Assembly (NCBI GenBank): GCA_023430825.1
Contig: JAEYYL010000003.1
Coordinates: forward strand, 3,791 to 67,790
Direction: 5' to 3'
Length of the DNA: 64,000 bases
Origin: Verrucomicrobiota bacterium
GTDB taxonomy: Bacteria > Verrucomicrobiota > Verrucomicrobiia > Opitutales > Opitutaceae
Part shown: positions 39,430-62,901 of the stretch, piece by piece
Layout of the letters: the number at the start of each line of letters is the position of its first letter
How positions within the stretch are numbered: the first letter of the stretch is position 1
Program-made: the position numbers and the translations under genes
Notes under the pieces: model-generated
The model's input: the letters and a program-made list of their open reading frames with translations, nothing else
The model's database searches: none
What the model was told of the DNA's origin: nothing

Positions 39430-39618
39430 ACTCAACAAGTTGCGCAAGCAGCTGAAATCACAGGAGATGCGCCGGATTCCGGTTCATCTCCTGTTTCGTA
39501 TCCGGGTGACGGAGCATACAAGTTCTATGCTCCGCCCGAGGAAGAAAAATCGTCCGCCGCAGAAAAAACGTCGGCTGACCTTAGACTGGCTCTTCCGGAT
39601 TTCCCAGAGGACGGGAAC

Positions 39619-40974
39619 GTGGCCAAGCTTCGTTCCAGTCCGGCAGCAATCAAATCCGTCCAAAATCGGTCGGGTTCGTGGAGCTATCGCGTGACCGTCA
39701 CGATCGCAGGACGTCAGAGGAAGAAGGTTTTTCAGTCGGAGGAAGAAGCGCTGGAGTTGCAGGAAACGTGGGAGAACGAACGCGTGCATGGCGCGGCTGC
39801 CGCACGCCCCAAAATGACGTCGCTGGAGAAAGCTCAGCTGAAAGACGCTGAGGCCGCTGCGCTCGTGCTCAAACCAACCGGGTTTTCGCTGCTGGAGGCC
39901 GCGCAATATGTGGCCGGACTGGATCGGCTTCGTTTGCAGGATGCCCAAAAGGCACTTCGGCTGGTGGAGGGGGAGCCGTTCAGCATCACCGACGCGGTCA
40001 AATTCGCGATGGCGCACAACCTTCAAACGACAGACTTCTCCAACACCGTTTACAGCGAGGGGCTCAAGGCGTATCTTGAGGATAGGAAAAACCACATTTC
40101 GAAAGCCCATTATCAGCGCGCATCCCAGCGCGGTCGGAGCTTTGGCGAATTCATCGGGCCGATGGTTATTCGTGACATTCCAGGGACAACAAAGGCCCTT
40201 GAGTGGGTGAAGTCGCGAGCAATGCCCGATGGCATTCTGACCTCCAAAGCGACTTGGAATAAACTCGTGACCGACCTTGCCACCATTTTCGGCTTTTTCG
40301 TGAAGAAGAAGTGGTGCTCCACAAATCCATTTTCAGATATCTCGCGCTACTCGAAAAAATCCATCGGCTCCCGGCAGCGCTTGCGACTGGAGGTTGGGGA
40401 TTGTGCCGCGCTTCTCGCGTTCCTTGAAGAGAAGCACCCGAAATGGTGCTGCTACTTTGTTCTCACCCTGCTTCTGGGGGTGCGCCCTGACATGAGGACG
40501 GGCGAGATCCGGAAGCTGGCGGACTGCATCGCCCGCGACGGTGTGGCGCCTTACTACTCGAACGGATCCATCCACCTTTCCGCGGAGATTACGAAGGAGC
40601 AGGAACCCCGTGAGGTGAAGGTGCCCGCTAACGTCGCCGCATGGCTCGAAAAGTATCCACTGACGCCGGAGAATATCTGTCCAGGGGACTACAAGGACGA
40701 CGATCTTCGCGCGATTCGAAAGCTGTTCCGCATCCCGCATGACGGACTCCGGCACACCGCCATCAGCGCTTTCATGGCAATGCCGGGCAACAGCTACGAC
40801 AAAGCGGCCGACCAGTTCGGAAATTCGGAGCCGATCATCAAGAAGCACTATCTGCGCCGGATGTCGCCCGAAGAGGGGCAGCAGTTCCACGCCATCATGC
40901 CGAAACGGGTCTTGAAATCCTCGCCTGAGTGCGAACACACGACCGCAGCCGAGCCGGCACTACATGCTTCGTAG
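39619..40974 (+). CDS. int: tyrosine-type site-specific integrase
   Basis: C-terminal catalytic region ...HDGLRHTAISAF... and ...IIKKHYLR. AP2/Arm-like N-domain (SGSWSYRVTVTIAGRQRKKVFQSEEEA). The track ORF starts inside the tRNA (39418). GTG at 39619 with GAGGA 7 nt upstream is my preferred start, but this is uncertain. Confidence 0.85.
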   Translation: MAKLRSSPAAIKSVQNRSGSWSYRVTVTIAGRQRKKVFQSEEEALELQETWENERVHGAAAARPKMTSLEKAQLKDAEAAALVLKPTGFSLLEAAQYVAGLDRLRLQDAQKALRLVEGEPFSITDAVKFAMAHNLQTTDFSNTVYSEGLKAYLEDRKNHISKAHYQRASQRGRSFGEFIGPMVIRDIPGTTKALEWVKSRAMPDGILTSKATWNKLVTDLATIFGFFVKKKWCSTNPFSDISRYSKKSIGSRQRLRLEVGDCAALLAFLEEKHPKWCCYFVLTLLLGVRPDMRTGEIRKLADCIARDGVAPYYSNGSIHLSAEITKEQEPREVKVPANVAAWLEKYPLTPENICPGDYKDDDLRAIRKLFRIPHDGLRHTAISAFMAMPGNSYDKAADQFGNSEPIIKKHYLRRMSPEEGQQFHAIMPKRVLKSSPECEHTTAAEPALHAS

Positions 40975-48235: not shown

Positions 48236-48669
48236 GGTGATTTTGTTTTAGGTTAGCTCTACTCAAGCTGCCCTAATTCCTCTTCAGTGCGTCTCGCGCC
48301 GAAGTTCAGGGCAGATCGCCGCTGCCGATTCCGTCGTGCCGTTTCCGGCTCTTCAGCTCCGTCAGGGTCGATTCCCTCTCCTTGTATTTCCGGAAGCCCC
48401 CTCCAAGGCCCTCGCAGATCTTTTCTGGTATTTTTGCTGAGGGCCGCATGGCGCTACGCCGTCGCGGTGATTGAACCGGCAAACAGGTTGGGTCGATGCC
48501 CCCTCAGCCGGCGGTCGCCCATCTTGACCCCTGGTCCTCAACGCCGATCACCTCACGCACGCAACCGTCCTGAATGTCACGGCGCAATCACCTTGCCGAT
48601 TGCGTTCGGCCCGCCAAGCACTTCCAGATATTTCTTGACGTTTCAAGAAACATACCGGCATCTAGAGAA

Positions 48670-51267
48670 ATGCTGGCTCACATTCTTTCTCCACGCCCCG
48701 AAGTCACTTCCGGCCGCATTCAAGGTGTCATTGATCCCGACCGTATCACAGATCCTAAGGGGAAGTCCCTAGAGGCGAAACCAACCGAATTTGTGCGCGC
48801 CACCTTCGTGTCCAACGATGTGCGCCGGCTCGTTAAAACTCTCCAGACGCGCCTCCATTCTTCCGAGTCGGAGGTTGGCACCGTTCTATTCGAGGGCCCC
48901 AAAGGGCAGGGTAAAAGCCACCTCATCACCCTCGGCTACCATCTCGTGAAGAACAACGCCGAGCTGGTCGGTTGGCTCACGGAGCAAAAGCTCGAACTCA
49001 CCATCCCGGGCAACGTCGTTGTCCTTCTTCGCAAATTTACCGACTTTCCCTTCGACACCCTCTGGCAGGTCATCGGCGATGCTATCGGAGCGAACTTCAC
49101 CGGCTCGCGCCCGCCGAGCATCGAAGCGTTCCGGGCCGCGCTCGCCGGCCGAAAACTCGTCCTCCTGTTCGACGAACTGGAAAGCGGCATCCGCGCCATC
49201 GGCAGCGACAGCCAGCGACAGGACAACATCAACTTCCTTCAGATGATCTCCGAGGAGTCCATGCGCGCCGACTCCAACGTTGTTCTCATCGCCTCCGTTT
49301 ACGACGGCAACATCGAGCCCGGGCTTACCCTCAAGCGCGTCAAGCCGACCGAGATCAGATTCACCGACAACCGGGATCGGCTTCACATCCTCTTCCACCG
49401 ACTCTTCGAAAAGTCTCCGTTGGCGGCGAACCCCGAAATCGACAACATCGTCAAGAGTCACGCCAACACGTGGCAGCGCTTCGGGGTCCCTGCCAACGCC
49501 GACTATGTCGAGCGTCTGCGCGAGAGTTTCCCATTCTCTCCCGAGCTAATCGACGTCGTCACCCAGCGCATTCCCCAGAGCCGGGGTGGTTTTCAGGGGA
49601 CTCGTGGCGCACTGGCATTTCTCGCCGCCCTCGTCCGTCTGCGCGGCCAGCAGACCAATCTGCTCACGCTTTCTGACGTCGCCATCACTGACGCGGACAT
49701 CCGCACGTGGCTCGCGGACCTTGAGCCTTCGCAGAACCTCATCTCCTGCGCAGATGCGAACCTCCGGGACCTGGCCAAACTCCCTGCTGCCGAGCGCATC
49801 ACGTCGGCCACCTTGATCGCCAGCCTCGCGCCGTCTCGAACACTGGGCATCTCCGAAGATGAACTGGCTCGTCAAGTCCTCGACCCCGCCGGGGATTACA
49901 ACCAGTTCAAACAGACTCTCGATGGCTTCACCAAATTTGCTTCGTTCTTTCACCGACGTGACCAACACGTCTACTTCGACACTCGCGAAAACGCGCACGC
50001 CAAGGTCGAGCTTCGGAGCATCTCGGTTAAAGACAGTGAGGCGTGGGATCGGATCGCGCAGTGGTGGCGCGCTGATGTTTTCGGCGACTCCGATGCCATC
50101 ATCCTTGGCGAGATCGATCTCGCCCGCAATCGGCTCGATGGTCTGCACGCGGATGGCCTTCGGTTCGTGATCTCACCTCGTCGCCTAAATGTTCGTGACC
50201 GGCACGATCTCTATTTCGGGCTGAAGCGCCGCAACACGGTCGTCCTCCTCGAACCCCGCGCAGACAAGGAAAACCTTCGCACCAACCCTGACATCCTCGC
50301 GTGGGCTCGTAAGGCCATCGCTGCTGAGGCTCTTGCAACCGCTACGATCGGTGACGCCGAGAAGGTCCGCGAGTTCTCCAAAATAGCTTCCGACCAGAAG
50401 ACCGCGGTCATCGAGGCGATCAAGAAGGTGAACTATGCCTACGTGCAGGTTCACCGCACAGGAGCAACTCCCGAGCAAGGCGATTACACGCTGGAGCCGG
50501 TCCAGCCTCTCGCGAAGCAAACCGTCCTTACGCACTTAGCGCGTAGTCTCTTCCCCGCTACCTACATTGCCGAACACATGCAGGGCCGATACTCCGAGCT
50601 GCTCGGCCGGAAGGTGGCCGCCGTGGAGGCAGAGTATCGCAATACCCTCAGCTTCCCCGTTCTCGTTTACCCGACCACCTTCATCGAGGCCGTCGACAGC
50701 CTCGTTGTGGACGGCGTCTTCAACCTCGCACATCCTGCCGGGACACAGCACGCCGGGGAAAACGTCATGCTTCGTGAAGCCGAGCTGATGGAGTCCACCT
50801 TTGCCGCGCCGTCGGCGCGCCCCGCCGCAGCTCCGGTGAACAGGCCAGCAGATCCGAGCCCCGTCGGAGGTTTTGGTCAGCCGCCGGCTACCACGACGGG
50901 AAGAGGAGGTGGTGTCTCCGCGGCGGTGGATGTGCTCCCCTTCACCGGCACAGCCCAGACTCTCACCACTGGGTTCTGCGATTCCCGGCAGGCACTTCGT
51001 CAGGAGGTAGCCGCCAAGCTTGATCAAGCCGAAGACCAGATTGTGGTTCGTGTCCGCATCGGAATCACCTTCGATGCCCGCACATCTGACATGTCCACGC
51101 TCCCTTCTTTCCTGCGTGGTTCGCTCACCGGAACGGGATTGTTCAGCGGTGAGGTCACGTTCGAGTTTCCTGGCTCGTTCAACAAGGCCGCTGTGGAAGC
51201 CATGATGGAACGTCTCCCGGATTTCGCGCCCGGCTCAGCCAAAGTGACGCTGACGCTCGCATCCTGA
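48670..51267 (+). CDS. DUF499/BrxC(PglY)-like P-loop ATPase
   Basis: 865 aa from the ATG at 48670. Walker A is FEGPKGQGKSH about 110 aa in. Walker B-like is LVLLFDELE. Long helical C-terminal region. First gene of the operon. Confidence 0.8.
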   Translation: MLAHILSPRPEVTSGRIQGVIDPDRITDPKGKSLEAKPTEFVRATFVSNDVRRLVKTLQTRLHSSESEVGTVLFEGPKGQGKSHLITLGYHLVKNNAELVGWLTEQKLELTIPGNVVVLLRKFTDFPFDTLWQVIGDAIGANFTGSRPPSIEAFRAALAGRKLVLLFDELESGIRAIGSDSQRQDNINFLQMISEESMRADSNVVLIASVYDGNIEPGLTLKRVKPTEIRFTDNRDRLHILFHRLFEKSPLAANPEIDNIVKSHANTWQRFGVPANADYVERLRESFPFSPELIDVVTQRIPQSRGGFQGTRGALAFLAALVRLRGQQTNLLTLSDVAITDADIRTWLADLEPSQNLISCADANLRDLAKLPAAERITSATLIASLAPSRTLGISEDELARQVLDPAGDYNQFKQTLDGFTKFASFFHRRDQHVYFDTRENAHAKVELRSISVKDSEAWDRIAQWWRADVFGDSDAIILGEIDLARNRLDGLHADGLRFVISPRRLNVRDRHDLYFGLKRRNTVVLLEPRADKENLRTNPDILAWARKAIAAEALATATIGDAEKVREFSKIASDQKTAVIEAIKKVNYAYVQVHRTGATPEQGDYTLEPVQPLAKQTVLTHLARSLFPATYIAEHMQGRYSELLGRKVAAVEAEYRNTLSFPVLVYPTTFIEAVDSLVVDGVFNLAHPAGTQHAGENVMLREAELMESTFAAPSARPAAAPVNRPADPSPVGGFGQPPATTTGRGGGVSAAVDVLPFTGTAQTLTTGFCDSRQALRQEVAAKLDQAEDQIVVRVRIGITFDARTSDMSTLPSFLRGSLTGTGLFSGEVTFEFPGSFNKAAVEAMMERLPDFAPGSAKVTLTLAS

Positions 51268-51275
51268 TCTCCGCC

Positions 51276-52283
51276 ATGTCCGCCCTCGTCGATTTTCCTC
51301 CTGGATTGCTTCTTGTCGGCGGCTCACGTGTGCCCGGTATCGCCGAGTGGCTGATGCAATCCGTGTGGTCCCCAGAGCGCTTCGCCTCGCTCCCTCGCGA
51401 GGAATACCTGCGCCTCGGGGAGGACTCGGTTTGCCGAGCCGAGGAGGCGATCTCCACAGGCGCTTCCCGTGTTTGGGATGAGCTGGTTGCAGCTTCTGCT
51501 CACGCTCTGACCCCTCGCGGGTATCTCGGCCTGGACTCGCCGCCCTCTTCAGCCCAGCCCGTCAGCCGCGCGGTCATCGTGTTTGATGGCCTGTCTCTCC
51601 GTGAGCTTCCTCTCCTCCTTTCGCTGGCGGCAAAAACGGGCTTTCGGGTGGACGACGCACGGGCTATGGCGACCTGCCTGCCGACTGAAACGATCGACTT
51701 CGTTTCCCAGCGCGTTCTCGGTGCGGATGCGGCCTACGGGACGGGACCGAGTCAGCTGCCAGGCCACGGTGCGCTCACGTCGCGTGGCGTTTTTGCCGCA
51801 TACCTCGATAGTCTAAACCCGCGAGTGTCGCTCCCGAGCGGCAAGTCGCTGCTTCTGTGGTCCACCTATCCGGATCGACTCTTCAAGGACGACGAAGCGC
51901 GATTCGATACCCAGCTCTTCCCCCAGTTTTGCGAGCATGTCTCCACCCTGTGGAAATACACGGTGCAGGCCGTGCCAGCAGGCGTGCCCATCGTTCTCAC
52001 CAGTGACCACGGTTATATTTTTTTCGGTGGCACAGCGGAGAGTTCACGCGAATCCACCGCGACCGAACAACTCCATCAACAACGCCACCAAGTCTTCGAA
52101 GACCAAGCGCCGTATCCGGCGCCACACCCTGATCTCCAGCGACTGCCCGAGCGACGCCTCGCCCTGCTGCGTGGCCGCCTCAAGACCCGCCCCAGGGGCG
52201 GCAGTGGCCGCAAGCTTTACCAGCACGGCGGCCTTTCCCTCATGGAGTCCCTCGTCCCGTGGGTTCTCCTCAACCGCAACTAA
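51276..52283 (+). CDS. PglZ-domain (alkaline-phosphatase superfamily) protein, short form
   Basis: AVIVFDGLSLRELP, CLPTETIDF, VLTSDHGYIF and YQHGGLSLMESLVPW signatures. Only 335 aa. Confidence 0.8.
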   Translation: MSALVDFPPGLLLVGGSRVPGIAEWLMQSVWSPERFASLPREEYLRLGEDSVCRAEEAISTGASRVWDELVAASAHALTPRGYLGLDSPPSSAQPVSRAVIVFDGLSLRELPLLLSLAAKTGFRVDDARAMATCLPTETIDFVSQRVLGADAAYGTGPSQLPGHGALTSRGVFAAYLDSLNPRVSLPSGKSLLLWSTYPDRLFKDDEARFDTQLFPQFCEHVSTLWKYTVQAVPAGVPIVLTSDHGYIFFGGTAESSRESTATEQLHQQRHQVFEDQAPYPAPHPDLQRLPERRLALLRGRLKTRPRGGSGRKLYQHGGLSLMESLVPWVLLNRN

Positions 52284-52295
52284 TCTCTCTCCACC

Positions 52296-52529
52296 ATGAG
52301 CAAAATCAAAGTCGGCACCCAGATCGAAGAGGAGATCTACCAGCAATTGAAGTTGGTCGCTGCCCGCGAACGCCGCCCCGTGGGCGAACTCGTCCAGGAT
52401 GCCGTCACCTTTTATCTCCGTCGCCAGCGTAAATCCGGCCTCGCTCGGCTACTCGAACGTGGCCCGACCTTCGCCGTGAGCGAAGCCGATCACCGCGAAA
52501 TCATGGAAGCGGATTTTTACGACCAGTGA
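52296..52529 (+). CDS. CopG/RHH-type antitoxin-like protein
   Basis: 77 aa. KVGTQIEEEIYQQLKLVAARERRPVGELVQDAVTFYL fits an RHH fold. Lies directly upstream of the PIN gene. Confidence 0.65.
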   Translation: MSKIKVGTQIEEEIYQQLKLVAARERRPVGELVQDAVTFYLRRQRKSGLARLLERGPTFAVSEADHREIMEADFYDQ

Positions 52530-52545
52530 GCGCAACCCGGACGAC

Positions 52546-53049
52546 ATGACTCTCGACGAAATCCGCAACCGCACCCGCGTCCTCATCGACGCCAACGTGC
52601 TCATCTATGGCATCCGCCGCTCTTCGCTCCAATGTCGGGCGCTCCTTGCACGCTGCGATTCCGGCGCCTTGGAGGGCATCATCACAACGACCATCCTCGC
52701 TGAGTTCAGCCACCGCCGGATGGTCGAGGAAGCGAAGTTCAAGGGTCTGGTCGGCTCTAATCCTGCCCGCGCTTTATCTGAGAATCGTAGTCTGCTGCGG
52801 TCGCTTTCCGCCTACGCAGACGAGGTGCGCGATCTTCTCGGCGGAGGTCTTCTGGTCGAGCAGGTAATGCCCGAAGACTTTCACCTAGCACTTGAGTTTC
52901 AGCAGAAGTTCGCGCTGCTCACGAACGACTCCCTCAACCTCGCGGTCGCCCGTCGGCTAGGCGTCAGCGAACTTGCGACCGCCGACAAGGGTTTCGATTC
53001 CGCCCAGGGATTCATCGTCTACAAGCCGAACGATATCGCCCTTCTATGA
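52546..53049 (+). CDS. PIN-domain (VapC-like) ribonuclease
   Basis: VLIDANVLIY (Asp1), AEF (Glu), LLTNDSLNLA (Asp3), ATADKGF (Asp4). Confidence 0.75.
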   Translation: MTLDEIRNRTRVLIDANVLIYGIRRSSLQCRALLARCDSGALEGIITTTILAEFSHRRMVEEAKFKGLVGSNPARALSENRSLLRSLSAYADEVRDLLGGGLLVEQVMPEDFHLALEFQQKFALLTNDSLNLAVARRLGVSELATADKGFDSAQGFIVYKPNDIALL

Positions 53050-54047
53050 ACGTGATCGCCACCACCTCAGAAGCCTTGCTGCAAGAGACCGCCTCGCTGG
53101 ATCTCAAGCGTAGCTTCAATCCGGCCAGCAATGGGGAGTGGTGCGAACTCTTGAAGGACCTAGTGGCTATGGCTAACTCGGGCGGGGGGCGTATCATCAT
53201 CGGCCTCAGTGACGACGGCACACCATCGGGCATCTGTTCGCGGAATTGCCGGTCGATCGACCCTGCGGTTTTTGTAGACAAGATTCACTCGTATACGGGG
53301 GTGCATTTCGCCGGAGTTTCGACACGCTCTGAATCGCAGGCTGGAGTCGAAGTGACTGTTTTTGTCGTCGAAGACGCGCCTGTCCCTCTCGTTTTCGACA
53401 AGGCCGGCAACTACCAGCCGACCGAGGGCAAGCAGCGCAACGCGTTCAATCAAGGCACACTCTACGTTCGGCACGGCGCCAAGAGTGAGCCTGCTACCTC
53501 TGCCGACATTCGGGAGATCCTCGATCGCCATCTGAAGCGCGCACGCGAGGCACTCCTCGTAAACCTTCGCCAAGTAGTTGAAGCCCCGGCCGGGTCGGTT
53601 GTGTCAATCGCTCCTCGGGCCGTCTCAACGAACGACTTTTCCGCTCACCCGGTCCGGCTCGTTGAAGATCCCGCCGCTGCACCGGCCGCAATGCTCGATC
53701 CCAACATCACGCATCCGCACCGGCAGAAGGAAGTGATCGCAAAGGTCAACGAGCGGCTAGCCGGCAAAACGCATGTAACCTCCGCGGATGTTCTGGCGAT
53801 TCGCCGTATCCACCGACTGGAGGCTAACCGTTCTCTCTGCTATCAGCCGAGGTTCGGCTCCTGCCAGTATAGCGACCTTTTCGTCGAGTGGATCATCAGC
53901 CACATTCAAGCGGACCCGAATTTCCTTCGGGATGTGAAGCATCGCTTCCACGAACTGACCGTGGCGCATAATGCCGCCACCCGTCGGCGTCGCCGCTCCA
54001 CTCGGATGAGCACCTACGGTCAGCCGAGTTCCGCTTTTTCGTCATGA
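53046..54047 (+). CDS. AlbA_2/Schlafen-like (divergent AAA) domain protein
   Basis: ETASLDLKRSF...LLKDLVAMANSGGGRIIIGLSDDG...GTLYVRHGAKSEPA pattern. ATGA overlaps at both ends. Confidence 0.65.
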   Translation: MNVIATTSEALLQETASLDLKRSFNPASNGEWCELLKDLVAMANSGGGRIIIGLSDDGTPSGICSRNCRSIDPAVFVDKIHSYTGVHFAGVSTRSESQAGVEVTVFVVEDAPVPLVFDKAGNYQPTEGKQRNAFNQGTLYVRHGAKSEPATSADIREILDRHLKRAREALLVNLRQVVEAPAGSVVSIAPRAVSTNDFSAHPVRLVEDPAAAPAAMLDPNITHPHRQKEVIAKVNERLAGKTHVTSADVLAIRRIHRLEANRSLCYQPRFGSCQYSDLFVEWIISHIQADPNFLRDVKHRFHELTVAHNAATRRRRRSTRMSTYGQPSSAFSS

Positions 54048-54601
54048 ACCAGTCCTATCCAGCTCGCACTCTGCTCGGAGCCTTGTCCGGCCTCCAAATC
54101 GCCCCTGTCCGTCGCAAAATCTTCGTCAGCTACCACCACGCGCATGACCAAGGGTATTACAACGAACTGTCCCGTGTGCTGCACGATCAGATGGACGTGG
54201 TCTTCGACAACTCGCTCGATCGCCGTATCGACAGCGACAACACGGAATACGTGATCCAACGCATCCGCGATAATTTCATCTCTGGCACATCCTGCACGAT
54301 CGTCCTTTGCGGACCGGAGACCTACCAGCGAAAATACGTGGATTGGGAAATCAAGGCCACGCTGGATAAGGGCCACGGTTTGATCGGCCTGCACCTGCCC
54401 ACAGCGGTTCGCGGGGATCAGGGCGGCATCCTTGTCGCGAGCCGTCTGTATCAAAACATCCAATCCGGTTACGCCCTCTGGAAATCGTGGAACGACCTTG
54501 CGGCAAACCCGCGGCTCATGGCCACGTGGATTGAAGATGCGGTTGCTCGTGACCAGAGCAAGATCGTCAACCCACACGAGATCAAATCCCGCAACGGGTA
54601 A
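54044..54601 (+). CDS. ThsB-like TIR domain protein (DUF1863/MTH538-type)
   Basis: KIFVSYHHAHDQGYY..., ISGTSCTIVLCGPETYQRKYVDWEIKATL... matches the TIR-like ThsB pattern, including the conserved Glu in WEI. Confidence 0.75.
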   Translation: MNQSYPARTLLGALSGLQIAPVRRKIFVSYHHAHDQGYYNELSRVLHDQMDVVFDNSLDRRIDSDNTEYVIQRIRDNFISGTSCTIVLCGPETYQRKYVDWEIKATLDKGHGLIGLHLPTAVRGDQGGILVASRLYQNIQSGYALWKSWNDLAANPRLMATWIEDAVARDQSKIVNPHEIKSRNG

Positions 54602-54608
54602 CTTTACC

Positions 54609-55169
54609 ATGGCCACGATCAAAGAAGGGAATTTCTCCATCAATCTCGGCCTGGTAAAGCTCGATGGGCGTCTCACCGACGATGACCGCCAATGCGCTTG
54701 GGAACTCTACGCTGAGATCATCACGCGGGTCGCTGTCGTCGGGAAGTGGAGCGATAAAGAGGCCACCAGTTTCGAAGGCGAGATCTACGCTGAAAGCTTC
54801 ACCTCGCTGCACCGGTTCTTCCAAGAAGCGCGGGGCATCATGCGAAAATTCCCCGTGGGGCGCATCGACAAGCCGACCAAGGACCACTTGGGAGTCATGA
54901 TCCAGCGGATTCTAACCGATGCGCTCCGGCCTTTTTTGGAGAAGTGGCAAGGCAACTACAGGTCGTGGTGGGAACTTCAGATGAATTCGCCGCGTAATCC
55001 GTTCGATGTGCAGGCCGAATTCAAGGACTTGAAAGGACTTCTGGAAGACTGGTCAGCCATCCGCCGCATCATGCGCCGCGCCGCTCACGAAATCTGCGAG
55101 GCCTACCAGCTCGAACCCGTCATCCAGCCACCATCTCAACCGGCGGAGCCCGCCCGCAGAGTCATTTAA
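54609..55169 (+). CDS. hypothetical helical protein (186 aa)
   Basis: ATG lies 7 nt after the TIR gene stop. The gene ends 5 nt before the methyltransferase. No family recognised. Confidence 0.55.
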   Translation: MATIKEGNFSINLGLVKLDGRLTDDDRQCAWELYAEIITRVAVVGKWSDKEATSFEGEIYAESFTSLHRFFQEARGIMRKFPVGRIDKPTKDHLGVMIQRILTDALRPFLEKWQGNYRSWWELQMNSPRNPFDVQAEFKDLKGLLEDWSAIRRIMRRAAHEICEAYQLEPVIQPPSQPAEPARRVI

Positions 55170-55174
55170 TCGCT

Positions 55175-58100
55175 ATGTCCAAACGCGCCATCGAAGAGTC
55201 TTTCCCTATTGTTGAGATCAACCGCCTGGTTGTTCCCGAGCGCAATGGGTTCAAGCCCATCTATCAGATGCACAAATCCTTCGCGCCCCGCGCTTCCTGC
55301 GTTTTCCGGGCTATTCTCTTGGGCGCGCTCAAGCCTGCCGGCACCAACATTATTGAAGAGTTCTACAAGGACCATACTAACGACCCCGACACGAAAGACA
55401 AGGTAGTCCTAGATACCTTCATGGGTGGCGGCACGACCATCGTCGAAGCGGTCCGCATGGGTATTCGTCCTATTGGTATCGAGCTTAACCCTGTTCCGTG
55501 GTTTGTAGTAAAAATGGCCCTTGCCCCGGCAGATGTGGAGGCCTTCGACGCTAGCGTAAAACGACTTGAAGAACGTCCGGTCGCGTGGTCTGGCAAATCG
55601 CTCACTGACACGCTTGCCGAACTTTATGAGACCGAGGCCCCAGTATATCTGGACAACGAGACAAACCAGGCTGTGAAGCCAAAAGCCCACGCAATTCACA
55701 CGTATTGGGTAAAATCGGCCATCTGCACGAGCCCGACATGCCGCAAGCAGGTTCCGCTCTTCAAAAACTACATCGTCGCGAACAAGACACCGACTATCCG
55801 TTACCACGCTGACTGCACCTGTCCACGTTGTCAGAAAACATTCGACTGGGAGTTGGAGCCTGCCGCTCTTGTTTCAGATCCCGCGCAGATGGTGCATGCC
55901 AGCGCCTACTCGGCCGGCGTAAGTCGTAGCACTGTCCGATGGACGTATGCCCACCCCGAAGGAGGTATCTACGTGGCGCAGGGGGACGCAAAAGGCGGGC
56001 AATCCACTGTCCGTCACGGGCGCGTTCCAACTGCGCACGTTTGTTGCCCCCATTGCTACGAAACGGTTAAACCGCGGCTTTCGACCACCAAGCCAAAGCG
56101 GAAGAAAATTCCCCTGAGTGTATTGCACTGTCCGAACACTGATGAAGTCTTTCAGTGGCGCGGAGAGCTGCCGCCAGGCATTACGGTCTCCTCGCCCCTT
56201 GGGGGCAATTTTGAACCACATCGCGGAAATGTTCCTGAAAACGGTGAGTTTCTTTGTCCGCACTGCGGCCAAAGAGACGAAAACATACGTTCAGTCCGTG
56301 CGCTACCCGAGAATGAACGGTTCCCCCTGAGTGCTTATGCGGCCCAATCTTACTGGGCAGCTGGTGATCCGAGAGAAGATGACGACGATAATGTAGAGGG
56401 TGATTTGTTCGTGACCATCAGCCCAGATAGGGTCGGCGCAGTATGCAGCAAGACAGACAATTTAGTTTGGAAGAATAAGGGTAAGTTCTTTCACTCCATA
56501 TCGCCCAAGCAATTAGCGAGTTATCAGTCAATTAAAGCGACTTGGGCAAGGAACCAAGACAGTCTTCCACATCCACGATCAGCCATCCCGCCTGGACAGG
56601 AAACAAAGCGCCTACACGAACACCATTATCGTGGTTTTAAGGACATGTTTTTGGATCGGCAGCTGTTGGCTTTGAGCACTCTGCTACACGCAATCGCCCA
56701 AGAGGAAAACGAGGCATGCCGCAACTTATTGCTCTTGGTTTTCTCGGGAACCGTAGAGCGCAATAATCTTTTCTGCCGGTATTTCAACGACCGAAACACA
56801 ATACAGGGGAATTTCGACCGTCACGATTACGCGCCAAAAATTGATCCGGCTGAGAATTGCGTTTGGGGGCCAAGTGAAGTCCGCGGCAGTTTCCACAATA
56901 TGCTCGGACGCGTAAAGGAGGGCCTGGAATTTAGAAGAAAGGTTTATGACCGCGACATTAACCGCCTTGGCGCAAAAGATAATTTGATTCTTTCCGGTGA
57001 ATCGATCGAGCCGGGGCGAGAAACTCTCCATAATGGCGACTCCCGCGAAGAGATTCGGAAGCTAGAGGACCTAGCTGATGCAGTCATTACAGATCCACCA
57101 TACGCTGGCAACGTAAACTACAGCGAGCTATACGATTTCTTCTATGTCTGGCTTCGCCTAGTCCTAAAGAACACTTACCACTCTTTTCAGCCAGAATATA
57201 CGCCCAAGACTACGGAGATTGTGGAAAACAAATCACGGGGCTTATCCAATGACGATTTTCGCGTCGGCCTCAAGACGGTGTTCGAGCGAGCCCACGACAA
57301 ATTAAAGGAAGACGGCGTGATGGCATTCACCTACCATCACTCAGGCAATCAACAATGGGTGGATTTGTGTGACGCCGTGTGTCTGGCAGGCTTTGTTATC
57401 GAGGCCGTCTATCCAGTTCATGCCGAAAAAGAATCGTCCCTAAACCTTCAAAACAACGAAGGCATCTCTTACGACCTAATCCACGTTTGCCGCAAGCGCC
57501 CCGCCGATCTTGGTCGGCGCAAGCGCACGTGGCAGGGCATACGGCAGGACATTCGCAAGAGAGCAGCTGAAGAAATCAAAGTTATCGAGAGCGGTCGTTA
57601 CGGTCGTGAACCTCTTGCCCCGTCAGATGTGCGCATGATCCTGATCGGGAAGTGCCTGGAGCTTTATTCGAAGCACTACGGCATCGTTATCGACGGTGAG
57701 GCTAATGTTCTACCCATGAAACGAGCGCTCGAAGACATTGACGAGATGGTGCAACAGCTCATCACCAAAGAAAATCCGCTTCCTAATGAGTTGGAGAACG
57801 TGGATGTAGTTTCCCGCGTATGGCTACGGGCTTTGTGCAACATTCGCGAGGTGTCGATTGATTCTGTCCGTAAGCTCACCCAGGGCATTTTTGAGCTTAG
57901 CGATCTGACCGACTACGATCCGCCTCTCGTAAGAAAAGGCCGTGTGAAAGGTGGCCGCACTTACACGGTTCTATCCCCTACCGAGCGACTTGATGCCCTT
58001 CACAAGAAGTTGAGCAATATAGACAACACCCTTAGCCAAATGGAGTTCATTCAAATTGAAGACAACTCCCTGTCCGCCATGGGACCTAATCTGATCGACG

Positions 58101-58303
58101 TGCTTCATTACTTACTTGCGCATGCAGAAACCGGTGAGCGACTCGATCTCATAGTTGAAAGATTTCGTGCGCACCGGCCACAAGTTCGGGCCGCGCTAGA
58201 GTTCATTAAAATCAAAGACCCCAATCGGTGGGCAAGATCCTGCGACCGATTGCTGCCTTTCTACACCGACATGCTGAGCAGCATGTTGGGCGCTCGAATC
58301 TAA
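55175..58303 (+). CDS. DUF1156-type Zn-ribbon DNA methyltransferase (PglXI-like, N6/N4 class)
   Basis: N-terminus AIEESFPIVEINRL...YQMHKSFAPR. Cys clusters CTSPTC...CPRC and CPHC...CPHCG. Catalytic VITDPPYAGNVNY. 1042 aa. Confidence 0.85.
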   Translation: MSKRAIEESFPIVEINRLVVPERNGFKPIYQMHKSFAPRASCVFRAILLGALKPAGTNIIEEFYKDHTNDPDTKDKVVLDTFMGGGTTIVEAVRMGIRPIGIELNPVPWFVVKMALAPADVEAFDASVKRLEERPVAWSGKSLTDTLAELYETEAPVYLDNETNQAVKPKAHAIHTYWVKSAICTSPTCRKQVPLFKNYIVANKTPTIRYHADCTCPRCQKTFDWELEPAALVSDPAQMVHASAYSAGVSRSTVRWTYAHPEGGIYVAQGDAKGGQSTVRHGRVPTAHVCCPHCYETVKPRLSTTKPKRKKIPLSVLHCPNTDEVFQWRGELPPGITVSSPLGGNFEPHRGNVPENGEFLCPHCGQRDENIRSVRALPENERFPLSAYAAQSYWAAGDPREDDDDNVEGDLFVTISPDRVGAVCSKTDNLVWKNKGKFFHSISPKQLASYQSIKATWARNQDSLPHPRSAIPPGQETKRLHEHHYRGFKDMFLDRQLLALSTLLHAIAQEENEACRNLLLLVFSGTVERNNLFCRYFNDRNTIQGNFDRHDYAPKIDPAENCVWGPSEVRGSFHNMLGRVKEGLEFRRKVYDRDINRLGAKDNLILSGESIEPGRETLHNGDSREEIRKLEDLADAVITDPPYAGNVNYSELYDFFYVWLRLVLKNTYHSFQPEYTPKTTEIVENKSRGLSNDDFRVGLKTVFERAHDKLKEDGVMAFTYHHSGNQQWVDLCDAVCLAGFVIEAVYPVHAEKESSLNLQNNEGISYDLIHVCRKRPADLGRRKRTWQGIRQDIRKRAAEEIKVIESGRYGREPLAPSDVRMILIGKCLELYSKHYGIVIDGEANVLPMKRALEDIDEMVQQLITKENPLPNELENVDVVSRVWLRALCNIREVSIDSVRKLTQGIFELSDLTDYDPPLVRKGRVKGGRTYTVLSPTERLDALHKKLSNIDNTLSQMEFIQIEDNSLSAMGPNLIDVLHYLLAHAETGERLDLIVERFRAHRPQVRAALEFIKIKDPNRWARSCDRLLPFYTDMLSSMLGARI

Positions 58304-58317
58304 CCGCTCCACTCACC

Positions 58318-58923
58318 ATGTCCGGCCGCAACCGCTACCTTGATGTCAGGTCACAATACGCAAATCTCCGCGAGTCCTTCGACAAACGCGCGGGCTTGGA
58401 GATTGCCACAGCTTCCCGCAAACCGTCTGAGCCGTGTATTTTCCTGTCCCATCGGAGCACCGACAAGGCCGCAGTGCGCAAGATCGGTGAGTATATCATG
58501 AGCAAAGGCATCGACGTTTATCTCGACGCCGATGACCCCAACCTCCAACGCGCCGATCTCGCGAACGATCACAAGGCCATCACCGCAGCCATAGAGCTGG
58601 GAATCGCCAATTCTACGGACCTTCTGGCCTACTTGACCGCGAACACCAAGGAATCGCCTTGGGTCCCCTACGAAATCGGCTTCGCCAAGCGTAACGGCAA
58701 TTACCTAGCGGCCATGAAAGCCAAGGACCTGACACGGCTTCCGAGTTACCTGGAGATCGTTCGTCAGATCAACGGCATTGCGGAGTTGAACACCTATCTC
58801 CGCGATGTGCTCAGCAGGCAGCAGGTCATCTACGGCAGCGCAAACTACACCCGCAACGCCTTGGTCGAGCAGCTGAAGCAGGCCTACCAAGGTATCGAAT
58901 TGAGCGCTTACCTAGACTACTAA
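58318..58923 (+). CDS. TIR-domain protein
   Basis: CIFLSHRSTDKAAVRKIGEYIMSKGIDVYLDADD and SPWVPYEIGFA (candidate catalytic Glu). 201 aa from the ATG at 58318. Confidence 0.7.
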   Translation: MSGRNRYLDVRSQYANLRESFDKRAGLEIATASRKPSEPCIFLSHRSTDKAAVRKIGEYIMSKGIDVYLDADDPNLQRADLANDHKAITAAIELGIANSTDLLAYLTANTKESPWVPYEIGFAKRNGNYLAAMKAKDLTRLPSYLEIVRQINGIAELNTYLRDVLSRQQVIYGSANYTRNALVEQLKQAYQGIELSAYLDY

Positions 58924-58932
58924 CTTTCCATC

Positions 58933-59388
58933 ATGTCTGGCTACCTCGTCCTCCCCCGCACCGCGCTCGATCTCCATGGCGGCACCATGCCCGCCGCGCC
59001 GGAGCAGATCGGCTTCCTCGATTTTCTCAGGGAGATCGAGCAGGACCCGTTCCCTTTCGCGCCACGTGCCCGGCTCTGCATCACTGGACTGGACGAGTTG
59101 CTTATTTCGCAGGACTGCACCCACCAGCGCATCACGCCTGCGGCTTCCGCCCTCCTGCTCGATTACCGTCGTCGTCTCAAGCGCGCCGCATCTGAGGTCA
59201 ACCACCTCGCAGATATCCAGGTCCCTGTCGCATATCCGCTCCGCCTCGGCGGTGAAAAGGACCTCGGCGCCCACCATACGAAACACGACTTCGTGCCACT
59301 CTGGCAACTCTTTGGAAAGAATCCGAGTTCGCGAGAGGTCATCACCGGCAAGGTGTTTGGCTACCATTTCGCGGAGACCCTTTCGTGA
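58933..59388 (+). CDS. hypothetical protein (151 aa), translationally coupled to the helicase
   Basis: Its stop overlaps the helicase GTG start (GTGA). No motif recognised. Its position matches where small accessory proteins sit in DUF1156/DUF499 loci. Confidence 0.55.
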   Translation: MSGYLVLPRTALDLHGGTMPAAPEQIGFLDFLREIEQDPFPFAPRARLCITGLDELLISQDCTHQRITPAASALLLDYRRRLKRAASEVNHLADIQVPVAYPLRLGGEKDLGAHHTKHDFVPLWQLFGKNPSSREVITGKVFGYHFAETLS

Positions 59389-62216
59389 GCACAGCCGGAC
59401 CTGAAACAACCGATCTACGGGTCGGCGACCGTGTCCGCATTGCGGGACGTTACGCACACGGCGTCGGCGAAGTCCTCCGCGTGCAACAGACCGGCGGTCT
59501 CGTCATCGCGGATGTCGTATTTGACGGGCAAGGAGGCCGGCGACTTGAGACGCTTCCCGTCAGCCGGCTCGAAAAAGCGTCGTCGCCTTGGGATCGCCTG
59601 CGCGCCGGTCACTACGACGATCCGCGTGACTTTTTGCTTCGTCAGCTCGCGTGGCAGTTCGCTCTGGGCAACTCCGGCGGGGAGCTTTCGAACGCCAAGA
59701 CGGCGTTGCTGCCACACCAGATTCTTCTCACCCACGATCTGGTGAAGATGCAGCGCCGTCGCGTGCTCGTCGCCGACGATGTCGGCTTGGGCAAGACGAT
59801 CGAAACAGGCATGGCCATTCGCGAACTCATCACCCGAGGAGAGGCGCGACGTGTGCTCATCATCACGCCAGCCGGTCTGGTGAAGAACTGGCAGCGCGAG
59901 CTGCGCGATTGCTTCCGCATCGAGTTCGAGATTCTCGGCACGGATTTCCATGATTACGCACCGACTTCCTGGGAAAATCATCACCGCGTTATCGCGTCGA
60001 TCGATACTCTCAAGCGCCCGCAGCGCACCGAGCGCCTGCTCGCCGCGCCCAAGTGGGACCTCATCGTTTTCGACGAAGCCCACCATCTTACACGTCTTCG
60101 CTACGGCTCGAAGGTTCAGGCCACGCTCAATTACAAGCTGGCTGACGCGCTGCGTGGACACACCCGCGACCTCCTCTTCCTTTCAGCCACGCCACATCAA
60201 GGTGACGCCTATCAGTTCTGGTCCCTGATTCACCTGCTGGACGATCAGCTCTTCGACTCACCCGAGGCGATGGACGCGCATCGTGGCCTTCTCAACCGCG
60301 TCATCATCCGCCGCACCAAACGGGAGGTCACCGATGGCGACGGCAAACCACTCTTCGTTCGCCGCCAAGTCACGACCGAGCGCTTCGAGCCCGCCCTCAG
60401 AGAACAGCGCTTCTACGAGAAGCTCACGAACTACTTGAAAGACGGCTACAATGCCGCGGGGGTTGGACCCAACGGACAGACCTCGCGCCCGTCCCGCGAC
60501 CAACGCGCCATCGGCTTCGTGATGGTCGCATTCCAGAAGATGATGTCGTCGAGTCCTCGCGCCATCCGTCAGGCGCTTCGCCGGCGTCTCCTAGTGTTGC
60601 TTGTTCGCCAGCAGATTGAGGTCGAGATGCGCCGGAAGTCATCCCCGTCGCCCGAGCTGTCCGACCGCTACCTGCGGTTGCAGGACGAAATGCGCGGCCT
60701 CGCGAAGGAGATCTACGCGCTCGCGCCGTCTCCCTCCACTGACGCGCAGGCCGACACCTGCATCGCGCAAGTCAGGGAGCGCACGCTCAAGAAGCTGATC
60801 GAGTCCGAGGACGACACCAACTGGTCCTTGGAATCCGACGAGGAGGGCGACGAAGGCATCTACGGTGATGCGGAAATTCCTGACGAAACCGCCAAGGTCC
60901 GGGAGTTGCTCCGGATCGTGCCTGAGGGGGTGGACCGCAAGTTCGAGCGGCTCGAAATGATCATTGGCAAGCTTCGTGCCGAAAACTCGGGGGAGCGATT
61001 CGTGATCTTCACTCAATACCGGGAGACAATGGAGTTTCTCAAGGCCGAGCTGGCTCGCATCGTCGGCCCCGAGCGTGTCGTCTCAATCCAAGGCGGGCCG
61101 CTCGAAGACAAAATCGCAGCCGCGGAGAAATTCTGGGCGGAAGACGGCGCACGCATCCTCATCTCAACCTCAGCGGGCGGTGAAGGTATCAACCTCCAGA
61201 TCGCACGGGTGCTGTTCAATTACGACCTGCCATGGAATCCGATGGCGGTCGAGCAGCGCATCGGCCGCATTCACCGCTTTGGACAGAAGGAGGTCTCGCA
61301 AGTCTACAACCTCGTGGCCAAAGACACGGTCGAGGAGAATATCTATACGCTGCTGTGGGAGAAGCTGGACCAGATCGCGAAAGCCATCGGCAAGACCGAT
61401 CCAGAAACTGGCGAGCCTTTAGAAGATTTCCGCAGCGACATCCTCGGCTTCCTCGGTTCATCACCCAACTACCAACAGCTTTTCAAGCAAGCGCTGATCG
61501 ACCGCGACTACAACCGCACCAGCAGAGAACTCGATCGCATGATGCAGACCGCCCAAAAAGCACGGTCCGCTTTGCAGGACCTGTCTCAGGACCTTACCAG
61601 TTTCAATCTTGAGCAATACCGCCGGATCTCAGGCCAGTTCCACTTGAAGCAACTCGGGGAATGGTGCCGGGAAGCGGTGGTTCGTCTCGGTGGAAGCGCA
61701 GTCCCCGCGGGCGAGTTTTGGCAGATTATCACGCCGGAGCCGCTCAAGAACTTTCCCAACGTAGGCGCCCGGTATGACAACGTCACGTTCGACCGTGCCC
61801 TCGCGACGCGCAAGAAGGGGTCCGAACTCTTTGGGATCGGCCACCCTTTCGTGGACGCTTTGATTCTACACTTACAAAATCCGCCTTTTGGTGCCGAAGT
61901 CGCCTGCCTCGCCGGTGCAGTGGATAACGCAAGGGTGGAAGCCCGTTATCGAGTAACATGGGATCGAGCTGAGAAGGGTGCGTTCAGCGGCGTCGTCATT
62001 GTTAGCTTGAACGGCACGGCCAGGGTGGAGGAATTGAGCCGCGACCCTGGTCGGTTCAATTCTCCGGCTCCGGACACTTGCTCCACGATCGAACCCGATG
62101 CAGAGGCCCGAGCTGAAGAGACGCTTAACCTCTGGATCTCTTCCCGCCGCACTGAATTCGCCGATGGAACCATTCCACGATGGGAACTACTCGGTGTATC
62201 CGTGCACGGGTATTAG
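59385..62216 (+). CDS. SNF2/RAD54-family helicase (BrxHII-like)
   Basis: Motif I DDVGLGKT, motif II DEAHHL, motif III SATP, GGEGINLQ, and motif VI QRIGRIHRFGQ. 943 aa. Confidence 0.9.
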   Translation: MSTAGPETTDLRVGDRVRIAGRYAHGVGEVLRVQQTGGLVIADVVFDGQGGRRLETLPVSRLEKASSPWDRLRAGHYDDPRDFLLRQLAWQFALGNSGGELSNAKTALLPHQILLTHDLVKMQRRRVLVADDVGLGKTIETGMAIRELITRGEARRVLIITPAGLVKNWQRELRDCFRIEFEILGTDFHDYAPTSWENHHRVIASIDTLKRPQRTERLLAAPKWDLIVFDEAHHLTRLRYGSKVQATLNYKLADALRGHTRDLLFLSATPHQGDAYQFWSLIHLLDDQLFDSPEAMDAHRGLLNRVIIRRTKREVTDGDGKPLFVRRQVTTERFEPALREQRFYEKLTNYLKDGYNAAGVGPNGQTSRPSRDQRAIGFVMVAFQKMMSSSPRAIRQALRRRLLVLLVRQQIEVEMRRKSSPSPELSDRYLRLQDEMRGLAKEIYALAPSPSTDAQADTCIAQVRERTLKKLIESEDDTNWSLESDEEGDEGIYGDAEIPDETAKVRELLRIVPEGVDRKFERLEMIIGKLRAENSGERFVIFTQYRETMEFLKAELARIVGPERVVSIQGGPLEDKIAAAEKFWAEDGARILISTSAGGEGINLQIARVLFNYDLPWNPMAVEQRIGRIHRFGQKEVSQVYNLVAKDTVEENIYTLLWEKLDQIAKAIGKTDPETGEPLEDFRSDILGFLGSSPNYQQLFKQALIDRDYNRTSRELDRMMQTAQKARSALQDLSQDLTSFNLEQYRRISGQFHLKQLGEWCREAVVRLGGSAVPAGEFWQIITPEPLKNFPNVGARYDNVTFDRALATRKKGSELFGIGHPFVDALILHLQNPPFGAEVACLAGAVDNARVEARYRVTWDRAEKGAFSGVVIVSLNGTARVEELSRDPGRFNSPAPDTCSTIEPDAEARAEETLNLWISSRRTEFADGTIPRWELLGVSVHGY

Positions 62217-62313: not shown

Positions 62314-62601
62314 CTATTGGTCAGCAACATTGAAGCGGGCGAACGCAGGTCCTCTTTTGTCGTTCAGGGCCACAACGTCGTAACCAAACTCGGTATCTAG
62401 GAGGATGGCCCAGGAGATTTCGTGTTTATAGCCACAATCTGCTGCCGGACACGGTAATCCAGGCACATGGCCTTCGATTCCGCAGTTGGGGCAGTTTTGG
62501 GAGGGGAGGCGCTCGTTGAACTGGTCGATAAACTCCAACGCCTTCTTCTTTTGGCAACGGAAGGCAGACTCCAGATAGGATTCGGACTCTTGATCGTTCA
62601 T
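62314..62601 (-). CDS. small Zn-ribbon-like hypothetical protein
   Basis: 95 aa. Contains CPNCG...CPAADCG. Lies downstream of the HTH gene on the same strand. Confidence 0.45.
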   Translation of the reverse strand: MNDQESESYLESAFRCQKKKALEFIDQFNERLPSQNCPNCGIEGHVPGLPCPAADCGYKHEISWAILLDTEFGYDVVALNDKRGPAFARFNVADQ

Positions 62602-62613
62602 CGGTTCATCGGC

Positions 62614-62901
62614 TCAGCGCTTGGACACGGTCACGGCGAATCCAGGCGCACTCGCAGCAGCGACGTCGGAAAGGAACGCGGTCATCAACTTCAGGGCCCA
62701 AGATTTCGGGAGTATAGCGACGACGCGCCCAATTTGCTCGGGCGTGGCAGGGCGATGTCCGTTCAGCAGCCTCGAAATCACGGCGAGATCGAGCCCGGAC
62801 TTCTCTGCAAGTTGCGCAGGTGAATCGGCGAATAATTCCGACACCAGTTGGTGAGCGGACTCTCGGGTTCGTGGAGTTCTGATCTTCTCTCGACGTGGCA
62901 T
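62614..62901 (-). CDS. XRE/Cro-like helix-turn-helix regulator
   Basis: PAQLAEKSGLDLAVISRLLNGHRPATPEQ is a classic HTH_XRE pattern. Confidence 0.6.
   Translation of the reverse strand: MPRREKIRTPRTRESAHQLVSELFADSPAQLAEKSGLDLAVISRLLNGHRPATPEQIGRVVAILPKSWALKLMTAFLSDVAAASAPGFAVTVSKR

Follow-up and report, generated by a model that had tools for sequence, protein, structure and literature searches.

A likely Type-3 BREX-Related defense operon with embedded defense cargo on a putative island beside a tRNA-Glu gene of a Verrucomicrobiota bacterium

The stretch of DNA analyzed here, referred to as the window, comprises 64,000 nucleotides of contig JAEYYL010000003.1 (assembly GCA_023430825.1) from a Verrucomicrobiota bacterium. 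Between positions 48670 and 62216, it carries eleven open reading frames (ORFs) on the plus strand, O1 to O11, which combine an ATPase, a PglZ-domain protein, a DNA methyltransferase and a helicase with a PIN-domain nuclease, a Schlafen-like protein and two TIR proteins. This composition recalls type 3 bacteriophage exclusion (BREX) and raises the question of whether the operon is a defense system of its own kind or a known one that has taken up further genes. The original prediction, made from the sequence, had suggested a possible distinct hybrid system in which BREX-like modification is wired to effectors of the abortive-infection type. Our analysis points elsewhere. We consider the operon likely to represent a Type-3 'BREX-Related' (BR) defense system with embedded defense cargo, situated on an island by tRNA-Glu.

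Systems centered on DUF499 were renamed 'BREX-Related' and divided into three types by Rakesh & Krishnan (NAR January 2026; PMC12839542). Type-3 BR, reported in 569 taxa, consists of a DUF499 ATPase, a methyltransferase that bears two zinc fingers of four cysteines each (4C) in a subset of the systems, and a BrxHII-like helicase without a nuclease; a standalone PglZ is near-universal, and a gene termed 'iSTAND' is present in 82% of taxa (PMC12839542). The type constitutes a PglZ-bearing branch of the Hma/DUF499 systems, within which Hma, composed of the helicase HmaA, the methylase HmaB and the ATPase HmaC, had been defined by Payne et al. (NAR 2021). In the window, all five defining components are found, and the methyltransferase O8 is one of those with two 4C zinc fingers. 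The assignment to Type-3 BR follows from this agreement, since every published component (ATPase, methyltransferase, helicase, PglZ and iSTAND) has its match.

Core proteins and their classification

Domains were assigned by Pfam, NCBIfam and PADLOC profile scans of the window proteins, and for the core proteins O1, O2, O8, O10 and O11 the assignments are established by homology and structure. The Walker A (GPKGQGKS) and Walker B (FDELE) motifs of the ATPase O1 are intact, and the Walker residues are invariant across 29 homologues. It matched the PADLOC models HmaC (2.3e-12) and DUF499 (9.5e-9) as well as NCBIfam DUF499_antiphage (1.1e-12), while its match to Pfam DUF499 (1.3e-3) stayed under the Pfam cut-off; the latter family was matched by 6 of the 29 homologues, with a best value of 3e-7.

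The methyltransferase O8 was recognized by PADLOC HmaB (6.6e-32), PglXI (3.7e-20) and DUF1156_MTase (2.9e-19), by NCBIfam DUF1156_antiphage (1.3e-25) and by Pfam N6_N4_Mtase (3.2e-11). Pfam DUF1156 did not match O8 itself at E 0.01. However, 25 of 26 aligned homologues matched this family, and the N-terminus of O8 is nearly invariant with theirs. The motifs FxGxG (residues 82-86) and DPPY (640-643) enclose an insert with two Cys4 clusters, and F82-T87, D640-Y643, C184/C189/C216/C219 and C291/C294/C319/C361 are invariant within the family. Because of the DPPY motif, the enzyme is predicted to be specific for adenine.

For the helicase O11, the best matches were PADLOC HmaA (2.4e-104) and BrxHI|II (2.2e-101) together with NCBIfam DrmD (2.2e-100) and RapA (3.5e-66), and Pfam recognized SNF2-rel_dom and Helicase_C. 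The motifs GLGKT, DEAHH, TPHQG and QRIGRxHRxGQ are conserved among homologues. Only positions 104-647 of the 1176 positions of the HmaA model are covered, leaving the nuclease part of the model unmatched, and no nuclease family was detected in O11 by the profile scans.

The sequence of O2 by itself gave only marginal PglZ matches, and the assignment was therefore drawn from its family and its structure. Nearly all of the 119 homologues are 325-340 aa long, and several are pre-annotated with PF08665. Across 30 aligned homologues, D104, S107, R109, E110, T139, D244, H245, H317 and E324 are invariant, a set that corresponds to the metal and nucleophile residues of the alkaline-phosphatase type. 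Searched against the sequences of the Protein Data Bank (PDB), the family profile matched the BREX PglZ 9nv3_C (2.7e-5) and also PorX. An AlphaFold (AF2) model of O2 with a predicted local distance difference test score (pLDDT) of 91.6 was compared by Foldseek, and the PglZ domain of PorX (E 4.5e-12, TMq ~0.6) and BREX PglZ 9zn5_B (TMq 0.60) ranked above other enzymes of the alkaline-phosphatase superfamily. On the BREX PglZ models, which span 675-890 positions, O2 covered the C-terminal catalytic part only (e.g., 616-722 of 890) and scored 13-18 bits, with NCBIfam cut-offs at 200-400. Profile and structure thereby confirm the earlier observation that this PglZ has about half the usual size, the 335 aa forming a standalone domain. 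It is presumed to be a metal-dependent phosphodiesterase/nuclease effector.

O10 alone produced no direct profile match. When an alignment of its homologues served as query, 473 proteins were retrieved, and those listed all carry PF26277 (DUF8076). The iSTAND sequence in the supplement of PMC12839542 (MKGYEIFEQK...IGFLDFLREL...VQIVCKG...FNLSS) belongs to the same family and matches the homologues of loci L086 and L088. Since the O10 family is the published iSTAND family, a BrxB/BrxF counterpart is present in the operon, and the original statement that no BrxF could be recognized has to be corrected. In the related loci described below, the O10 gene lies directly 5' of the helicase gene.

Canonical type 3 BREX has the layout BrxF-BrxC-PglXI-BrxHII-PglZ-BrxA. 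The operon in the window resembles type 3 BREX (Goldfarb et al. 2015) in its homologous ATPase, its PglXI-like methyltransferase, its BrxHII-like helicase and its PglZ catalytic domain, and also in the presumed methylation-based self-marking combined with exclusion of unmodified DNA. It differs in having a PglZ of the catalytic domain only and another gene order, and in the placement of O1 and O8 in the DUF499/DUF1156 branch rather than in BrxC/PglXI proper; these two proteins scored higher with Hma/DUF499/DUF1156 models than with BREX models, and O11 scored equally with both. A further difference concerns BrxA, for which no match was found among the eleven proteins in Pfam, NCBIfam and PADLOC at E <= 0.01 (O10: Pfam only). 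Canonical type 3 BREX was rejected on the grounds of the missing BrxA, the catalytic-only PglZ and scores far under the cut-offs of the BREX NCBIfam models. On this point our results agree with the original prediction, which had recognized no BrxA and had noted a layout that is not canonical. Its domain calls (DUF499/BrxC-like ATPase, PglZ, DUF1156 methyltransferase, SNF2 helicase, PIN, AlbA_2 and two TIR proteins) were all supported by profiles, conserved residues or structure, including the DUF499, PglZ and DUF1156 assignments on which the reading as a BREX-like operon depends.

The operon also resembles Hma. HmaA, HmaB and HmaC are the best PADLOC models of O11, O8 and O1, respectively, all on one strand, and the operon has embedded defense genes at internal hot spots, as most Hma loci do. 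According to Payne et al. (2024), 62.7% of Hma loci contain embedded genes, many of them active defense systems and 96.7% on the same strand, and the share of hma loci with insertions was 66.5% in the study of Liu et al. (2024). In contrast to the tested HmaA, in which a C-terminal PD-(D/E)XK nuclease is essential for defense (Liu et al. 2024), O11 matches the helicase part only, and the window has a standalone PglZ and DUF8076 instead. The Hma search rule (Payne et al. 2024) allows three genes between the HmaC-like and the HmaB-like gene. As six genes lie between them here, the PADLOC system rule might not call the locus.

All eleven genes are listed in Table 1. The junctions between successive ORFs from O1 to O11 measure 8, 12, 16, -4, -4, 7, 5, 14, 9 and -4 nt (negative values denote overlaps), and the ORF listing of the window thus bears out the earlier description of same-strand genes that are spaced by 5-16 nt or overlap by 4 nt. 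The ORF of O1 opens at 48574; homologues of ~865 aa and the gene called in locus L001 both support the start at 48670. The starts of O7 and O9 are internal ATG codons of the ORFs 54432-55169 and 58228-58923, respectively. All eleven ORFs are full length relative to their homologues, and the catalytic motifs of all window enzymes are intact (Walker A/B, PglZ metal site, PIN acidic residues, DPPY/FxGxG and Snf2 motifs). A scan with a terminator consensus yielded weak sites only, 16 against 16.0 expected from shuffled sequences, and a promoter consensus likewise gave no signal above shuffles. The hairpin 3' of the stop codon of the helicase gene showed no folding advantage over shuffled sequences (z = -0.72).

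Table 1. Genes and candidate regulatory element of the operon, with the number of surveyed loci (of 89) that contain a homologue of each gene. The counts for O8, O10 and O11 are limited mainly by contig ends.
Feature	Assignment	Length (aa)	Position	Strand	Basis	Loci (of 89)
Palindrome	TTCTTGA-N4-TCAAGAA, candidate operator/promoter element		48632..48649	+	~20 nt 5' of O1 start	
O1	DUF499-type (HmaC/BrxC-like) AAA+ ATPase	865	48670..51267	+	profiles, Walker motifs	86
O2	Standalone PglZ-domain protein (alkaline-phosphatase superfamily)	335	51276..52283	+	profile, residues, structure	88
O3	Ribbon-helix-helix-like protein	77	52296..52529	+	N-terminal pattern in homologues	47
O4	PIN-domain (VapC-like) nuclease	167	52546..53049	+	Pfam PIN 7e-8	46
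O5	AlbA_2 (Schlafen-like) N-terminal and EC042_2821 restriction-endonuclease-like C-terminal part	333	53046..54047	+	Pfam/PADLOC	6
O6	ThsB-type TIR protein	185	54044..54601	+	Pfam ThsB_TIR 2.5e-24	6
O7 (u7)	Conserved-family protein without annotation	186	54609..55169	+	partner of ThsB-type TIR	4
O8	DUF1156-type N6-adenine DNA methyltransferase (HmaB/PglXI-like), adenine specificity predicted	1042	55175..58303	+	profiles, motifs	67
O9	Second TIR protein (TIR_2/ThsB-like)	201	58318..58923	+	Pfam TIR_2 6.5e-10	4
O10	DUF8076 protein ('iSTAND'; proposed BrxB/BrxF-like inactive STAND NTPase)	151	58933..59388	+	family search, supplement sequence	61
O11	Swi2/Snf2 helicase, BrxHII/RapA-like architecture	943	59385..62216	+	profiles, motifs	57

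Related loci and the embedded genes

Related loci were collected by seven look-ups of PglZ homologues and by a scan that used a single genome for each species. The resulting 89 loci (~85 distinct) were searched with iterated hidden Markov models of the eleven window proteins; the sample represents the best 80 relatives of the window PglZ and may therefore be biased. Verrucomicrobiota, Ignavibacteriota, Bacteroidota, Nitrospirota, Desulfobacterota, Planctomycetota, Latescibacterota and others are represented, and the closest loci belong to Verrucomicrobiota, especially to metagenome-assembled genomes of Opitutaceae/Opitutales. Across these loci, the gene order ATPase-PglZ-(RHH-PIN)-methyltransferase-DUF8076-helicase is conserved, where RHH denotes the ribbon-helix-helix-like gene O3. 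An independent metagenome contig, L001, repeats the 11-gene layout of the window with a PglZ identity of 95%; it keeps the same ORFs, and its proteins are 77-99% identical to those of the window. Ten of the eleven genes recur in locus L010.

Two intervals of the core accommodate additional genes. For the first, complete loci were considered, i.e., non-duplicate loci with PglZ and methyltransferase both on the contig (n = 65), and the interval between PglZ/PIN and the methyltransferase was occupied in 30 of these. The second, between the methyltransferase and DUF8076, was occupied in 12 of 58 loci. Many loci in several phyla are without any cargo (e.g., L012, L017, L036, L043, L044, L048 and L088), and some bear unrelated genes in the same two hot spots. 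The 'seven extra genes' of the original prediction can be sorted accordingly: one of them (O10) is the core iSTAND, two (O3 and O4) form a conserved pair, and the remaining four are variable cargo in these hot spots. In L003/L014, L004, L007 and L054, the methyltransferase or the helicase is shortened or fragmented; L003, for instance, retains ATPase, PglZ, RHH, PIN, DUF8076 and helicase next to a methyltransferase remnant of only 293 aa. Either the modification arm is decaying in such loci or the truncations are assembly errors.

In 34 homologues, O3 follows the pattern MKxKIGTxLE...LK..AARE.R.I.D.IQDAL..YL, succeeded by an acidic C-terminal tail, and weak matches under the cut-offs were obtained with RH3_dom (8.5e-4) and NCBIfam slr0373 (8.7e-6). 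We infer an RHH fold from this pattern, and O3 may be the antitoxin/repressor that partners the PIN protein; its homologues always lie directly 5' of the PIN gene. The Pfam PIN match of O4 spans the full domain, and D15, E53, D111, D128 and D147 are kept in 45-47 of 48 homologues. RHH and PIN were present in 38 of the 65 complete loci. When identity to the window was correlated with PglZ identity, the Spearman coefficients were 0.87 for RHH and 0.86 for PIN, compared to 0.76-0.86 for the recognized core genes. Since the identities of RHH and PIN track PglZ as well as core genes do, the pair was inherited with the core in a large subclade and not inserted repeatedly.

Upstream of O1, the perfect palindrome listed in Table 1 is the sole match of its kind in the window, with 0.05 expected by chance. 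Among 76 related loci, 15 carry it with up to two mismatches ~10-70 nt 5' of the gene for the ATPase; besides L010 (6048-6065) and L026 (7380-7397), these include distant loci of Nitrospirota, L085 (7285-7302) and L087 (380-397). All palindrome-bearing loci of known status carry RHH and PIN, a correlation that is partly confounded by phylogeny. The palindrome is a candidate operator, possibly for O3. Compared to type II toxin-antitoxin systems of the VapBC family, the arrangement of a small RHH-like protein with an acidic tail and, 16 nt further on, a PIN protein with its acidic residues is similar. However, the pair in the window constitutes genes 3 and 4 of a defense operon with which it co-diverges across phyla, and the candidate operator is located 5' of gene 1 and not of the RHH-PIN pair. 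A conserved RHH-PIN subtype with an upstream palindrome appears to go beyond the published description of Type-3 BR and is a minor new point.

The actual cargo begins with O5, for which Pfam SLFN_AlbA_2 (6.4e-12) and EC042_2821 (1.8e-6) as well as the PADLOC candidate PDC-S19 (1.4e-9) were matched; the few loci with a homologue carry it at varying positions. In addition to the Pfam match in Table 1, the TIR protein O6 was recognized by PADLOC PDC-M50B (1.1e-14) and ThsB (8.2e-14), and it contains the motif YVDWEI, the glutamate of which we take to be the usual TIR catalytic position. The second TIR protein, O9, also matched Pfam ThsB_TIR (4.5e-7) and PADLOC ThsB (6.1e-14). O7 had no match in Pfam, NCBIfam or PADLOC, and neither the search of PDB sequences with the O7-family profile nor a Pfam scan of the family members revealed a relative. 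The family nevertheless comprises 314 representative clusters in 1.84 billion proteins, with the invariant motifs DDDRQCAWEL, FPVG and RPFLE.W, and in some members O7 is fused behind a receiver-like domain (weak matches, below the Pfam cut-off).

A metagenome scan with O7 returned 40 loci. In most of those with upstream DNA on the contig, an O6-like ThsB TIR gene lies directly 5' of O7, and in many of the loci an O9-like TIR gene directly precedes or follows the O6-O7 pair. This adjacency also holds in loci outside BR systems, e.g., L094, L104 and L120-L123, and several TIR-u7(-TIR) loci are without a BR gene within 6 kb. In L104, the module lies between glutathione peroxidase and radical-SAM genes, and in L120 it lies beside an Eco57I-type methylase gene of the restriction-modification kind, DUF3644 and DUF6650. 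Because the module occurs contiguously in loci without BR genes, O6, O7 and O9 look like one autonomous module of two TIR proteins and O7, of which O9 is probably the third gene. In the window and in L001, L004, L010 and L092, this module is split by the methyltransferase gene, which is a minor new point. A literature search (PDC-M50; BREX combined with PglZ, TIR and embedded) did not turn up this combination of cargo. The main text of PMC12839542 does not mention TIR proteins, of which the locus in the window bears two, although its neighborhood figures may overlap with this observation.

Thoeris loci typically encode more than one ThsB, and O6 and O9 are both TIR proteins of the ThsB type. 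In contrast to Thoeris, no ThsA domain (SIR2/SLOG or Macro/TM) was found in the operon by Pfam, NCBIfam or PADLOC, and the constant partner of the TIR proteins is O7, an uncharacterized helical protein of 175-186 aa.

Competing explanations of the operon

One competing reading is a single integrated hybrid. BREX-like sensing and modification would be wired to abortive-infection effectors (the two TIR proteins, PIN and AlbA_2), which might fire once the BR core detects foreign DNA or once a phage anti-BREX protein inhibits the core. All eleven genes share one strand with gaps of at most 16 nt or 4-nt overlaps, the layout recurs completely in L001 and nearly completely in L010, and RHH and PIN co-diverge with the core. 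Moreover, every BR locus with O6-O7 has a second TIR gene in or beside the operon (L001, L004, L010, L019 and L117). There is also a published precedent, as PIN, Schlafen, restriction endonucleases and other nucleases embedded in BREX/BR loci have been described as 'auxiliary and backup effectors', and the 'backup effectors' were proposed to reinforce these systems (PMC12839542). We nonetheless regard an integrated hybrid as unlikely. O5, O6, O7 and O9 occur in just 4-6 of the 89 related loci. Many loci in several phyla manage without cargo and others have unrelated genes at both positions, the TIR-u7-TIR module is found without any BR gene, and in Hma/BREX operons, autonomous systems that are active individually are as a rule embedded on the same strand. 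Nothing found in the survey points to a wiring of the TIR or AlbA_2 genes to the modification machinery. With the core architecture published in January 2026 and the embedding habit in 2021-2024, the claim of a distinct BREX-like hybrid falls.

Two further explanations were weighed. An ordinary type 3 BREX with rearranged gene order, in which BrxA and BrxF merely went unrecognized, could draw on the PglXI and BrxHI|II matches of the methyltransferase (3.7e-20) and the helicase (2.2e-101), on the presence of PglZ and on the proposal that O10 is BrxB/BrxF-like. It is nevertheless extremely improbable, given that BrxA has no match, that the 335-aa PglZ reaches 13-18 bits where 200-400 are required, that ATPase and methyltransferase fit HmaC/HmaB and the DUF499/DUF1156 'antiphage' models better than the BREX models, and that the order of ATPase, PglZ, methyltransferase, iSTAND and helicase is kept in dozens of loci and is therefore not a rearrangement. 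Full-length ORFs with intact catalytic motifs and the retention of the same ORFs in L001 at 77-99% protein identity likewise make it very unlikely that the operon is a decaying remnant, i.e., a string of defense pseudogenes on an old island, even though degraded relatives exist (L003, L004, L007 and L054, with assembly errors being possible).

Several points weigh against the interpretation as a Type-3 BR operon with embedded cargo. Type-3 BR loci are said in PMC12839542 to be without conserved standalone nucleases, whereas PIN was found here in 38 of 65 complete loci; either a bias of our sample or an incomplete published description accounts for this discrepancy. The experimental tests found in the literature concern Type-1-like Hma (HmaA with nuclease) and none was found for Type-3 BR. 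Tight translational coupling of cargo and core would also be expected of an integrated system. At the level of single proteins, O1 reaches the DUF499 models weakly and far under the curated (equivalog) cut-offs, and the profile of its family had no relative among PDB sequences (best E 0.12). For the AF2 model of O10 (pLDDT 92.7), Foldseek found nothing significant in the PDB, the library of which includes the BrxC-BrxB structure 9zn5 (best E 0.48); the weak matches mixed clamp loaders, p97 and adenylate kinase with xylanases. As this confident model has no significant neighbor in the PDB, the published STAND assignment of DUF8076 rests on weak similarity. Finally, methylation, restriction and phage defense by the operon are predicted from homology.

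Presumed mode of action and genomic setting

Provided that the operon is a Type-3 BR system, a mode of action can be proposed by analogy with BREX and Hma. O8, probably together with O1, would methylate host DNA, with the zinc-ribbon insert of O8 reading the target motif. The ATPase/helicase machinery of O1 and O11 would engage unmarked incoming DNA, which the metal-dependent PglZ (O2) would then restrict, with O10 presumably regulating PglZ or sensing on its behalf. The most likely role of the VapBC-like pair of O3 and O4 would be that of a backup toxin or a stabilizing module, and O3 may also repress the operon via the palindrome 5' of O1. O5 and the module of O6, O7 and O9 would be cargo that is co-transcribed with the core and probably acts autonomously.

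A more far-reaching proposal is tentative and, in our view, rather doubtful. It regards RHH and PIN as the regulatory part of a Type-3 BR subtype and O6, O7 and O9 as a new Thoeris-like system. RHH may bind the palindrome and control the whole operon, so that PIN may be freed as a backup effector upon shut-off or inhibition of the system; the two ThsB-type TIR proteins O6 and O9 may signal to O7 as a novel helical effector, with the module split around the methyltransferase. Independent of this proposal, the locus offers an example of Type-3 BR that is compact, intact, apparently co-transcribed and suited to cloning. RHH and PIN together with the palindrome provide a testable model for the regulation or backup of BR operons, and O7 is a conserved uncharacterized partner of ThsB-type TIR proteins that could be a new effector of TIR signals.

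The methyltransferase is out of step with the other operon genes. For the methyltransferase and PglZ, respectively, identity to the window proteins was 77% and 95% in L001, 52% and 84% in L010 and 79% and 74% in L012, and the GC content of the operon is lowest over the methylase region (0.51-0.56 at 54-58 kb). Taken together, the decoupled identity and the low GC content suggest recombinational swapping of the methyltransferase or of its specificity region.

With regards to the surroundings, the GC content of the window steps down from ~0.66 to ~0.59 exactly at a tRNA-Glu gene (anticodon TTC, 39352-39429). Since the block of lower GC content begins at this gene, the operon most likely sits on a genomic island inserted beside tRNA-Glu. 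No integrase was recognized there, as the 518-aa ORF 39418-40974 and the neighboring ORFs were without a Pfam or NCBIfam match. The lower-GC stretch from 39.4 to 64 kb also holds AAA_25/RepA-like and DUF5131 genes at 42.5-45.4 kb. Directly downstream of the helicase, the minus strand encodes within 62314-62901 two short ORFs (95 aa each) that converge, one of them with an HTH_3 domain, and an HTH_31 gene occupies the corresponding place in L001. The two ORFs may represent a regulator or a toxin-antitoxin-like pair tied to the locus.

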